From Phycisphaerales bacterium JB054 (GTDB taxonomy: Bacteria; Planctomycetota; Phycisphaerae; Phycisphaerales; UBA1924), in assembly GCA_043100935.1 (NCBI GenBank), contig JBICHP010000016.1, positions 25,520 to 89,519 on the forward strand: a DNA stretch of 64,000 bases, written 5' to 3'. How positions within the stretch are numbered: the first letter of the stretch is position 1; every line of letters starts with the position of its first letter. The position numbers and the translations under genes are program-made. Of this stretch, positions 41,996-58,378 are shown piece after piece. Under the pieces are notes generated by a model. It made no database searches. It was not told the origin of the DNA and was given only the letters and a program-made list of their open reading frames with translations.

Positions 41996-42240
41996 AACAG
42001 GCCACCGGCGAGCGCAGCGGCATCACTGCGCGGGGAGGAAAGGAGAGGTGGAGGAGAGGGGGGAGGCCGCGAGTGATGGCACCCGGGGATTTGGGCCGCC
42101 CGCCGCTGGCTCGCTAAGGGCAACCTCATTCGCGATCTGTCACCGCGAAGTAACGGCCGCTCTCACGGGCGTTCGCGATCTTCGAAGATGCCTGTAGAGT
42201 GCCGAAGAGGTCACACCCACTCGGATTGAAAGGTATCGTC

Positions 42241-43539: not shown

Positions 43540-43636
43540 GGCAGGTGGCGCCGACCCGTGCCACCGACCTCGGCTTTGCGAGGTCGGTGCGGTGTGCCAG
43601 CGGACCACCGACCTGCTCAGAGCAGCAGGTCGGTGG
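43540..43636. repeat. Right copy of the 27-nt direct repeat followed by two further GC-rich hairpins
   Basis: Direct repeat at 43540-43566. Hairpin CACCGACCTCG-GCTTTG-CGAGGTCGGTG (43562-43589). Hairpin CCACCGACCTGCT-CAGAGC-AGCAGGTCGGTGG (43605-43636). Confidence 0.8.
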
Positions 43637-48992: not shown

Positions 48993-49023
48993 TCGACACG
49001 CACCGCACACCGATTCCTACGAG

Positions 49024-49048
49024 CCCCGAGCACACGCTCGGGGTTTTT
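49024..49048 (+). terminator. Rho-independent terminator after rplU
   Basis: Stem CCCCGAGC / GCTCGGGG with ACAC loop, followed by TTTTT. Confidence 0.8.
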
Positions 49049-49055
49049 CGTGCGC

Positions 49056-50609: not shown

Positions 50610-50652
50610 CCAGGGAATCTCCGTCGGTGAGAGTCGTGTGCGTGCCCCGACT

Positions 50653-50767
50653 GTAGAGCCCCTCGCGCAAGCGAGGGGACACGTCTCCCCGATTGAGCCC
50701 CTCGCGCAAGCGGGGGGGCACGCCTCCCGTTTGAGCCCCTCGCGCAAGCGAGGGGGCACGTCTCCCG
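50653..50767 (+). repeat. REP cluster: 3 tandem copies of GAGCCCCTCGCGCAAGCGAGGGG(A/G)CAC..TCCC
   Basis: Copies start at 50656, 50695 and 50733. Each folds as CCCCTCGC-GCAA-GCGAGGGG (8-bp stem, GNRA-type loop). Immediately adjacent to the 3' end of the HUH gene. Confidence 0.9.
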
Positions 50768-50773
50768 TACAAC

Positions 50774-51256
50774 TCACTGCATCCGCAAAGTGTAATCCGT
50801 CGCCGCCTCCAACGCCCGTTCATCCCAAAGCCATCTCGTGCTCCCCATCTTCGTCCACACCCGCTTCCGATCACCGAGCAACCCGCGCTCGCGGAGTCGC
50901 CTTGTCGCCCACGACTTGCACTGCGCCATGACCTGCTCCGGACTGTGCGCCCCGGCCTCGATCACCAGATGGACGTGGTTCGTGCGCACGTTGATCGCCA
51001 GGATCCGCCAGCCGCGAACCTCGGCATGCGCCCGGATCGCGTCCTCGACGACCGTCCGGGCGTCATCCCTCAGCAGCAACGGCGATTCCGAGAGTTGCTC
51101 ACGAAGACGCGAGCTGCGATTCGGTTGCGCCTCAAGGTGGGGATGCCCGTACACGTTGTGCGCATCATCGACCGAGCCCCGGCGATCACCGTGGAGCCAT
51201 GTCGCATACGTCGTCCATGTAAGAAAGTATGCGAGTGGCGGCCCGTCGCTCGGCAT
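50774..51256 (-). CDS. IS200/IS605-like Y1/HUH transposase-fold protein, candidate REP-associated tyrosine transposase (RAYT)
   Basis: 160 aa. N-terminal YFLTWTTYATWLHGDRRGS block and HUH motif NHVHLVI. Flanked on both sides by copies of the same REP hairpin. A catalytic Tyr is not unambiguously identifiable by eye (candidates near the C-terminus, TDYTLRMQ). Confidence 0.6.
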   Translation of the reverse strand: MPSDGPPLAYFLTWTTYATWLHGDRRGSVDDAHNVYGHPHLEAQPNRSSRLREQLSESPLLLRDDARTVVEDAIRAHAEVRGWRILAINVRTNHVHLVIEAGAHSPEQVMAQCKSWATRRLRERGLLGDRKRVWTKMGSTRWLWDERALEAATDYTLRMQ

Positions 51257-51278
51257 CCACCGAGTGTACCGCGACCTG

Positions 51279-51357
51279 CCCCCTCGCTCGCGCGAGGGGC
51301 TCTACGTCTCGCGCGTTGTTCCCATAGAGCCCCTCGCGCAAGCGAGGGGACACCTCC
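51279..51357. repeat. REP pair in inverted orientation (REPIN-like doublet)
   Basis: 51279-51304 (cccccctcgctcgcgcgaggggctcta) is the reverse complement of the REP consensus with one loop change. 51325-51357 (tagagcccctcgcgcaagcgaggggacacctcc) is a direct copy. Confidence 0.85.
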
Positions 51358-51362
51358 GCGTT

Positions 51363-52781
51363 CTACCCGATCCGTTCTTTCCCACCCATATACGCCCTCA
51401 ACACCTCCGGCACCGTCACACTCCCATCCTCGTTCTGATACATCTCCAGAATCGGAATGAGAATCCGCGGGCTCGCCGCCACCGTGTTGTTGAGCGAGTG
51501 GCAATACACCGTCTGTCCCTTGCCGCTCTCGCCACCATCCCGGTACCGCATGTTCAGCCGCCGGCACTGGTAGTCGTACAACCGGCTCGCCGAGTGCGTC
51601 TCGCCGTACGAGCCGCGGCTGGGCATCCAGCTCTCCACGTCCACCATGTCCGCGTTCTTTGCGCCAAGATCACCAGTGCAGCACTGCAGCAAGCGGTGGG
51701 GGAGTTCCAGGCTCTTCAAGAAGTCCTCAACGATCCCGATCATCTCGCGGTGCCACTTCCGGCTCTCCGCCTCGTCGGCCTTGCAGATCACCACCTGCTC
51801 GACCTTGTCGAACTGATGAATCCGGTAGAGCCCCGCCGTGTCCTTGCCCGCCGCTCCCGCCTCGCGCCGGAAGCACGTGCTCACCGTGCACAGCTTCAGC
51901 GGCAGCTCCGCCTCGTCAAGGATCTCCCCCATCCGCATCCCCATCAGCGAGACCTCGCCCGTCCCCGTCAGGAAAAGGTCGCGGCTCGTGTCCGTCGCGC
52001 CGGCGTCCGAGCGGTGTTCCTCATCCGGCGACTGCCGCGTCGTCTCATCGATGTGGTACGCCTGCTCGCGCCCGCCGGGGAAGAACCCCGTCCCCACCAT
52101 CGCCTCCTCGCGCACCAGCACCGGCACCGTCACCGGCACAAACCCGCGATCGCCGATGAAGTCCATCGCGTACCGCAGCACCGCGTTGTGCAGCCGCGCA
52201 CCGTCGCCCACCAGCACATAGCTCCGCGATCCCGCCAGCTTCACGCCGCGGCCGAAGTCCGCCCAGCCGTGCCGCTCGATCAGGTCGAGATGGCTCAAGG
52301 GCGCAAAGCCCTTGTTGGCCGCAAAGTCTTTCGCCGCGTCAAACCACGACGGGTTCCACGTGCTGATCTCGATGTTGTCGTCGCTGGTCTTCCCGACCGG
52401 CACGTCCGCGTCCGGCGGCAGCGGCACCTGCAACAGCAACGCCGCGAGCTCCGGCTCGATCGCCGCCATCTCCGTCTCGATGGCCTGGATCTCTTCCTTG
52501 AGCACAGCGGGCCGGGCCTTGAGCTCGGCGATCTCGCGCTCCAGCCGCGACCGCTCCTCGCCCTCGGCCTTCTTGAGCTGGCCGCTCAGTTTGCCGATCT
52601 GCGGGCCGGTCTCTTTGGCCAGCTTCTTCTGTTCGGCCCGCAGGTTCTCTACCTTCGCGCCCAGCTCCCGCTTCGACGCGTCAAGTTCCAGCAGCCGGTC
52701 AATATCCACAGCCATCCGCTTCAGGCGTGCGCCCTCGCGAAACCGCTCCGGATCCTCTCGCAATGCTCGCAGGTCAATCAT
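51363..52781 (-). CDS. serS: Seryl-tRNA synthetase
   Basis: ATG at 52781. N-terminal coiled-coil arm and class II motifs (FRREAG, GLYRIHQFDKVE, NNTVAASPRILIPILE). It carries an insertion (TTRQSPDEEHRSDAGATDTSRD) relative to typical SerS. Confidence 0.95.
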   Translation of the reverse strand: MIDLRALREDPERFREGARLKRMAVDIDRLLELDASKRELGAKVENLRAEQKKLAKETGPQIGKLSGQLKKAEGEERSRLEREIAELKARPAVLKEEIQAIETEMAAIEPELAALLLQVPLPPDADVPVGKTSDDNIEISTWNPSWFDAAKDFAANKGFAPLSHLDLIERHGWADFGRGVKLAGSRSYVLVGDGARLHNAVLRYAMDFIGDRGFVPVTVPVLVREEAMVGTGFFPGGREQAYHIDETTRQSPDEEHRSDAGATDTSRDLFLTGTGEVSLMGMRMGEILDEAELPLKLCTVSTCFRREAGAAGKDTAGLYRIHQFDKVEQVVICKADEAESRKWHREMIGIVEDFLKSLELPHRLLQCCTGDLGAKNADMVDVESWMPSRGSYGETHSASRLYDYQCRRLNMRYRDGGESGKGQTVYCHSLNNTVAASPRILIPILEMYQNEDGSVTVPEVLRAYMGGKERIG

Positions 52782-58262: not shown

Positions 58263-58270
58263 ACCGCCCA

Positions 58271-58378
58271 TAGAGCCCCTCGCGCAAGCGAGGGGGCCCG
58301 TCTCCTTAGAGCCCCTCGCGCCAGCGAGGGGACGCCCGCTCCTAGAGCCCCTCGCGCAAGCGAGGGGACCCCTCCCCC
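58271..58378 (+). repeat. REP cluster: 3 tandem copies of TAGAGCCCCTCGCGC(A/C)AGCGAGGGG
   Basis: Copies start at 58271, 58307 and 58343, with the same consensus and orientation as 50653-50767. Lies between the lpxK stop and the convergent transporter stop. Confidence 0.9.

Follow-up and report, generated by a model that had tools for sequence, protein, structure and literature searches.

A RAYT-like HUH-Y1 gene and its flanking REP hairpins in Phycisphaerales bacterium JB054

In canonical class 2 systems, such as E. coli YafM (PDB 4ER8) and the REPIN-RAYT systems of Pseudomonas (REPIN, REP doublet forming a hairpin), a REP-associated tyrosine transposase (RAYT or TnpAREP) is encoded by a single-copy, vertically inherited gene that is bracketed by its cognate repetitive extragenic palindromes (REPs). 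These REPs are intergenic, are rare between divergent genes and form inverted doublets, and their abundance tracks the presence of the gene. IS200/IS605-type TnpA proteins (IS608, ISDra2, and Sulfolobus IS200) have the same histidine–hydrophobic residue–histidine, single-tyrosine (HUH-Y1) fold, carry a Y...Q type motif, and recognize hairpins on single-stranded DNA (ssDNA), which we liken by homology to the system described below. Class 3 TnpAY1 was defined by Quentin et al. (2018, BMC Genomics 19:475, PMC6006769) from 24 sequences found mainly in Planctomycetes and Acidobacteria, and was seen as a group that might stand midway between IS200 transposases and RAYTs. [quoted passage not shown] Here, we analyzed a window of 64,000 nt (C16:25520-89519) from the genome of Phycisphaerales bacterium JB054, in which a gene for a 160-amino-acid protein matching class 3 is bracketed by REP hairpins.

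We consider it highly probable that this gene encodes a vertically inherited, single-copy class 3 HUH-Y1 ssDNA endonuclease/transferase, and that a ~30-nt unit, (C/T)AGAG-CCCCTCGC-GNRA-GCGAGGGG-ACa, is its cognate REP. The pairing of a REP with an HUH-Y1 gene is supported because the protein passes the Y1_Tnp model, the repeats are dispersed genome-wide in intergenic DNA, inverted copies bracket the gene, and the repeat co-occurs with the orthologue in other genomes. The system is a further member of a known, barely studied class described in 2018, after which no later work on class 3 was found in our literature search. What is added here is conserved synteny, repeat co-distribution, purifying selection, strand polarity, and array dynamics.

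A 160-amino-acid protein of the HUH-Y1 superfamily

The gene lies on the minus strand (50774..51256; all positions without a contig or locus name are those of the window). As a sequence-only reading of the window had claimed, its product contains an NHVHLVI motif, with N93-H94-V95-H96 at its start. The protein passes the threshold of Pfam PF01797 (Y1_Tnp; 32.8 bits versus a cut-off of 23, E = 8e-8), so that the similarity to Y1/HUH transposases on which that reading depended is borne out. Its match to the NCBIfam IS200 model stays below the cut-off (31.2 versus 55 bits). It also fails the canonical RAYT model NF047646 (REP_Tyr_transpos; 30.5 bits versus a cut-off of 80), whereas seven class 2 genes of the same genome pass (81-101 bits).

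Protein conservation was assessed in an alignment of 74 homologues, from which we derived a profile of 157 positions. H94, W134, and Y155 do not vary at all, conservation at H96 and Q160 is 90% or higher, and there is hardly any variation in a long N-terminal block (A9-D30). The catalytic tyrosine, which had not been obvious from the single sequence, was located by this alignment as Y155 in a Y-x4-Q160 motif (Y155-TLRM-Q160), and the supposedly IS200-like N-terminal block (YFLTWTTY.TWLHGD) proved to be a signature of the family to which this protein belongs, as opposed to a block typical of IS200. The 74-homologue profile matches Sulfolobus IS200 structures (E = 3e-4; best matches 2f4f and 2ec2). 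An AlphaFold model (AF2; predicted local distance difference test score 90.4) gives the order beta-alpha-alpha-beta-beta(HUH)-alpha-beta-alpha(Y), with the HUH motif on strand 94-100 and Y155 on the final helix (146-158). The 30 best PDB matches found by Foldseek are all ISDra2, IS200, E. coli RAYT (4er8), or IS608, with E between 2e-4 and 2e-2 (3e-4 for 4er8) and target-normalized template modeling scores of 0.40-0.67. By its sequence and its modeled fold, the protein belongs to the HUH-Y1 superfamily, with Y155 as the predicted catalytic tyrosine.

Within this superfamily, the published motifs and the N-terminal block match class 3 TnpAY1, not a canonical class 2 RAYT. The class 3 motifs correspond to N93-H-V-H96, W134-T135, and Y155-TLRM-Q160, the N-terminal conservation corresponds to A9-D30 (157-position profile here versus ~155 amino acids published), and hairpins flank the gene here also. 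The foot is a close variant of the published CnGA, reading (T 57% / C 26%)-A-G-A and then G, that is, with C in first place in 26%; the feet of paralogues and homologues are CAGA or ACGA. Canonical RAYTs have the tyrosine motif Y-I-H-x-N-P in place of the C-terminal Y-x4-Q, and their REPs a GTAG head that most copies here lack (position -5 is A in 45 and G in 20). IS200/IS605 TnpA proteins, for their part, lack the ~30 extra N-terminal residues with the conserved WLHGDxRGS loop that are present here, and they are mobile, whereas the gene studied here is found in one copy, at a fixed locus and without tnpB.

The class 3 family occupies at least 589 loci in species-representative genomes, mostly of Phycisphaerae, the other hosts being Acidobacteriota, Chloroflexota, Pirellulales, and Myxococcota. 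When we inspected homologous loci of other genomes for which both flanks were present, 44 of 63 had an inverted repeat, matching exactly over 12 nt or more, common to the two flanks. These repeats usually consist of nCGAGCC or CAGAGCC followed by a stem and a GNRA-like loop, and mostly lie 40-100 nt upstream of the start codon. A nearly identical REP core, GAGCCCCTCGCG-nnA-GCGAGGGG, flanks class 3 genes at 47-61% protein identity (L093, L026, L027, and L031), one of which (L093) is in a metagenome-assembled genome of Dehalococcoidia, hence in another phylum. Such a core beside diverged proteins suggests either that the hairpin is strongly constrained or that gene and repeat have been transferred horizontally together.

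REP copies in the window and in the genome

Scanning the window for the motif CCCCTCGC-GCAA-GCGAGGGG with up to three mismatches, and using shuffles as background, we recovered eight hairpin copies, against 0.06 expected (mean of the shuffles; none of 100 shuffles reached 9). They conform to CCCCTCGC-GNRA-GCGAGGGG with a 5' (T/C)AGAG foot. All eight are the copies listed by the sequence-only reading, in the layout it described: a tandem triplet, an inverted pair, and a second tandem triplet. The first cluster (50649-50763) comprises three head-to-tail copies with a period of 38-39 nt, all on the plus strand and 3' of the Y1 gene: copy 1 (50654..50681; TAGAG foot, core 50659-50678, GCAA loop), copy 2 (50693..50720; TTGAG foot, core 50698-50717, one mismatch), and copy 3 (50731..50758; TTGAG foot, core 50736-50755). 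In the second cluster (51277-51352), two copies lie 20 nt apart as an inverted doublet with the feet inside. Copy 4, on the minus strand (51277..51304; core 51280-51299, GCGA loop, foot 51300-51304), lies closely upstream of the start codon of the Y1 gene; next comes copy 5 on the plus strand (51325..51352; core 51330-51349). The Y1 gene is therefore bracketed by inverted REPs, copy 4 on one side and copies 1-3 on the other. The third cluster (58264-58377) is a head-to-tail triplet between convergent genes, with a period of 36 nt and all units on the plus strand: copy 6 (58271..58298; core 58276-58295), copy 7 (58307..58334; core 58312-58331, one mismatch, GCCA loop), and copy 8 (58343..58370; core 58348-58367).

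The claim that all clusters sit at intergenic 3' ends of genes holds only for the one at 58271-58378. Cluster 1 is 3' of the Y1 gene yet 5' of an aldo-keto reductase gene, and cluster 2 is 3' of serS yet 5' of the Y1 gene. As ssDNA, a single unit with its 8-bp stem and GCAA loop folds with -10.8 kcal/mol (z = -4.6), while the doublet of copies 4 and 5 (51277-51352) folds, as a REPIN would, into one long hairpin of -35 kcal/mol (z = -6.6). No Rfam family was matched over the whole window. A scan for terminators and promoters around the Y1 gene returned nothing, including no T-run terminators, which means that the hairpins are not intrinsic terminators of the classical type. We rejected an interpretation of the tandem arrays as clustered regularly interspaced short palindromic repeats (CRISPR), since the spacers are just 10-28 nt long and show partial conservation within an array, and neighboring units may adjoin directly.

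Genome-wide, with up to three mismatches allowed, we counted 96 copies in 49 clusters of one to seven units on 18 contigs of the draft assembly (3.98 Mb, 41 contigs, 68% GC), which disposes of the concern that the repeat might be confined to the three loci of the window. The weight matrix that we built from 88 copies gives a ~30-nt unit, c-a-(T 57% / C 26%)-A-G-A-G-CCCCTCGC-GC(A/G)A-GCGAGGGG-A-C-a, in which the G-A-G of the foot is kept in 82-85 of the 88 and the loop is GCAA in 49, GCGA in 28, and GCCA in 6.

Intergenic enrichment, proposed from the window alone, was found across the genome: 72 of the 96 are located in DNA not called as gene, against a non-coding share of 13.6%. Among 33 classified clusters, 15 are between convergent, 15 between tandem, and 3 between divergent genes (one of these a mis-call), against a background of 16, 67, and 16% of gaps, respectively, so that convergent gaps are over-represented. 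Gene positions came from a home-made codon log-odds caller, which replaced a GC3-based caller (GC3, GC at third codon positions; run on the repeat-masked genome) that had mis-called the serS region. Most copies scored as inside genes fall in open reading frames that the log-odds caller had fused across arrays. Enrichment of inverted doublets, also anticipated, was not found, since REPIN-type doublets are a minority, accounting for 10 of 47 adjacent pairs, whereas 37 are head-to-tail. Some units abut, with a period of 30-33 nt, and tails are more alike within arrays (identity 0.54) than between arrays (0.39). Relative to the nearest upstream gene, orientation is biased only 46:22, one third of the copies being antisense; the commoner orientation puts the GNRA loop into the transcript.

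Gene and repeat across genomes, and the readings they allow

Orthologues with 74-77% identity are present in three other assemblies. All adjoin serS; in two assemblies the gene lies between serS and the aldo-keto reductase gene and in the third between serS and an asparaginase gene. The same REP flanks all three, with inverted copies bracketing the gene, and the orthologues show a dN/dS (ratio of nonsynonymous to synonymous divergence) of 0.18-0.19 at a dS of 0.8-1.25. The assumption that the gene is single copy stands in that the genome has one orthologue, although three paralogues with ~50% identity are present, each with its own repeat. Co-distribution was examined in 41 related genomes, with an orthologue cut-off of at least 73% identity and a stricter repeat count (up to one mismatch). 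The four carriers have 78 (this genome, G000), 40 (G003), 345 (G005), and 392 (G006) copies, and the 37 genomes with no orthologue at this cut-off have 0-10. Many inverted REP pairs occur in the listed part of G005. The lowest count among carriers belongs to the genome in which the invariant W134 has become a stop (TGG->TGA; L012 4399-4401; CP053450.1, ~1,561,980). Since a near-identical TARA copy (L010) is intact, we take the G003 orthologue to be a recent pseudogene.

Orthologous sites also record array dynamics. At the site of the 58271-58378 cluster, G003 has two units where the window has three (copy 7 has no counterpart), with cores kept at 20/20 and 18/20 positions and spacers diverged, which implies core constraint or ongoing homogenization. 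At L009, additional copies between rplU and gidB are without counterpart in the other genomes.

The orientation of the copies follows local GC skew far more closely than it follows the upstream gene (42:6 versus 46:22). Plus-strand copies are in C-rich context in 36 cases and G-rich in 10, and minus-strand copies in G-rich context in 39 and C-rich in 11 (Fisher p = 5e-8); where |skew| is at least 0.1, the foot-bearing strand is the C-rich strand in 42 of 48 copies. Gene strand is independent of skew sign. Near-complete polarity of this kind is what a strand-specific, single-strand mechanism predicts, and we regard it as direct evidence from the genome for such a mechanism. IS608 and ISDra2, according to work cited in PMC3333891, use the lagging-strand template.

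From homology we infer how the enzyme works chemically, which strand it acts on, and what it targets. It would bind the REP hairpin on ssDNA, read the conserved 5' foot, and cut next to it, with a metal ion held by H94 and H96 and with Y155 on the C-terminal helix forming a 5'-phosphotyrosine link. The strand might then be rejoined elsewhere, or beside an existing unit, yielding new intergenic copies, and rejoining could add or remove units in head-to-tail arrays. For E. coli bacterial interspersed mosaic elements (BIMEs), a proposal of local unit addition by nick-primed synthesis is found in PMC3333891.

Parts of this evidence also fit other readings. Inverted hairpins that flank a gene of this superfamily and fold, with a Y-x4-Q resembling the IS200-type transposase motif (PMC6006769), could mark an autonomous IS200/IS605-type insertion sequence whose subterminal ends are the hairpins, the other copies being decayed or miniature derivatives. 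Synteny largely refutes such an element, which we hold to be extremely improbable: the gene sits at one chromosomal locus across four genomes at a dS of ~1 and a dN/dS of 0.19, exists in one copy whose nearest paralogues are ~50% identical, is accompanied by serS and the aldo-keto reductase gene and by no tnpB, and is outnumbered by the repeats ~90 to 1. It is also very unlikely that the hairpins are selected host regulatory elements (3' mRNA stabilizers, terminators, or protein-binding sites) whose proximity to a Y1 gene is incidental, even though they are enriched in convergent gaps and close behind stop codons, have their GNRA loop transcribed in the commoner orientation (46 versus 22), and keep their cores while spacers diverge. 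Host elements of this type leave unexplained the strict co-occurrence of repeat and orthologue in the 41 genomes and the recurrence of the gene plus inverted-repeat layout across the protein family, and neither T-run terminators around the gene nor an Rfam family in the window was found. Moreover, with one third of copies antisense, skew polarity (42:6) is by far the better predictor of orientation. A host role is known for E. coli REPs, and a secondary one is conceivable here too.

The prevalence of head-to-tail pairs (37/47), the likeness of tails within arrays, the one-unit difference at the orthologous site, and the purifying selection on the gene would suit a nuclease specific for REPs that has been domesticated for a host function (for instance at stalled forks or in genome structuring), with slippage, unequal exchange, and gene conversion, as opposed to transposition, as the main means by which the repeats spread. 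This is unlikely, as 49 clusters on 18 contigs require a dispersal step, repeat counts differ tenfold between congeners, and near-complete strand polarity is a prediction of ssDNA insertion. The favored reading, a class 3 enzyme with its cognate REP, has points against it as well. Head-to-tail arrays could have grown independently of the enzyme, through slippage or unequal exchange, as the tail identities (0.54 versus 0.39) would allow. The pseudogene carrier G003 keeps 40 copies, not far under the 78 found here, so that, with four carriers, copy number is tied only weakly to the gene being intact. The assembly is ~93% complete and in 41 contigs, which makes the copy counts lower bounds, and the intergenic figures are approximate because the log-odds caller missed serS and put 24 copies inside fused open reading frames. 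To our knowledge, biochemical activity has been shown for no class 3 member.

As to the kind of system, the suggestion of a REPIN-RAYT system in a planctomycete stands for the association of a REP with an HUH-tyrosine transposase gene in a member of the Phycisphaerae, but not for a canonical RAYT (30.5 versus 80 bits) or for a repeat organized mainly in inverted doublets. By the features that Bertels & Rainey use to define REPIN-RAYT systems, the locus agrees in its single-copy, vertically inherited gene and gene-dependent repeat abundance, and differs in its mostly head-to-tail arrays.

Other Y1 genes and the skew landscape of the genome

The genome is rich in related genes. Searching with tblastn, we found the three paralogues and one distant relative, and a Pfam scan found 14-15 Y1-like loci; combined, they give 17 HUH-Y1 genes in ~4 Mb. 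Four (plus the distant one) are class 3-like, nine are class 2 RAYT-like, and three are IS200-like with a YIxNQExHHKT motif. Seven of the nine class 2 RAYT-like genes were scored with the NCBIfam RAYT model and all seven pass its cut-off, as given above; one of the nine is a pseudogene. Examples of Y1 loci are C38:10078-10557, C36:533722-534180, C17:279509-279955, C3:45085, C1:104274, C36:666359, C17:173966, C27:106109, C41:21369, and C33:92445. Most Y1 genes are bracketed by inverted copies of their own distinct repeat, except that two IS200-like genes have none and two class 2 genes share one family. For the 15 genes with flanking repeats, we defined 14 repeat families of 12-84 copies each, mostly intergenic, and at least 12 Y1 genes have their own well-populated family. 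The four class 3 REPs are related yet distinct, with a GAGCCC foot in common, while a GTGCC(A/G)-type head is common to seven of eight class 2 REP families. Earlier surveys of proteobacteria found a maximum of four RAYTs per genome (PMC3686654; PMC6006769). In a comparison by Pfam scan, Y1 counts in this order range from 0 to 14, this genome having the highest.

Copies of these other families also occur in the window. Just after the L21 gene, a hairpin of a paralogue family, CGAGCCCCGAGC-ACAC-GCTCGGGG, is followed by TTTTT (49018-49050) and looks like a REP copy doubling as, or recruited as, an intrinsic terminator. Copies of two families cognate to class 2 RAYTs (C33/C14; C17:214148) lie at 42063-42085 and 43557-43571, the latter in the right arm of a 27-nt direct repeat (43540-43566) flagged by the sequence-only reading, so that the supposed cassette boundary at 43540-43566 is probably a REP (CGTGCCACCGACCTCG-GCTTTGC-GAGGTCGGTG).

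Skew polarity extends to these families. The same preference was observed in F2 (12:1), F3 (7:0), F4 (7:1), F7 (12:0), F9 (10:0), F10 (15:1), and F14 (9:1), and in F5 and F8 after orienting them by their head motif. F1 to F4 are the repeats of the four class 3 paralogues. Within the skew arms described below, the head-bearing strand is on the C-rich strand in 10 of 14 REP families, class 2 and class 3 together, with p<0.05 for eight.

The skew itself is organized in an unusual manner. Six sharp flips within contigs, all from minus to plus GC skew and each within ~1 kb, were found at C4:29257, C14:279624, C33:31129, C36:65082, C36:405619, and C36:786738. Each has arms of 40-50 kb in which |skew| is 0.25-0.3 and fades to ~0. 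Negative arms are found at the end, or positive arms at the start, of many contigs, and further flips are probably located at contig ends. The window is a single negative arm from ~46000 to its end. Because GC3 skew has the same sign for genes of both strands (left arm, -0.54 for plus-strand and -0.34 for minus-strand genes; right arm, +0.28 and +0.53), the asymmetry is mutational and strand-wide. Minus-strand genes of the local arm have G-ending codons, and a codon model with the whole genome as its training set gives them low scores (serS, 51363-52670, and the Y1 gene, 50774-51256); the low scores of these two genes result from how strongly the strands differ in this region, which can mislead gene finders.

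The one arm that we checked in G003, a complete genome of the same genus, is conserved, namely the arm holding the Y1 locus. A similar flip is present in G015, from another genus of the same family, and none was found in 400 kb of G027, from a different family. RAYT nicking was considered as the origin of the arms and appears unlikely, since G019, a member of the same family without Y1 genes, still has an arm of +0.15 to +0.22 at a contig start; the arms are thus probably independent of RAYTs. Neither DnaA-box clusters nor a common gene was found at the flips. One rather doubtful proposal is that the flips are fixed replication start or end sites of a multi-site replication program, with the HUH-Y1/REP systems as strand-specific passengers whose REP polarity reads out this undescribed chromosome feature. 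Mammalian genomes, with their N-shaped skew domains, offer a parallel for such replication sites.

The locus is a clean case of domesticated behavior, in that the gene keeps its chromosomal place, is under purifying selection, and is linked across species to how abundant the repeat is. It also offers a defined 30-nt substrate for biochemistry. The class 3 family is far larger than the 24 sequences reported in 2018, and this lineage is a natural system in which to ask how many orthogonal enzyme–hairpin pairs can coexist and how their specificity is encoded.

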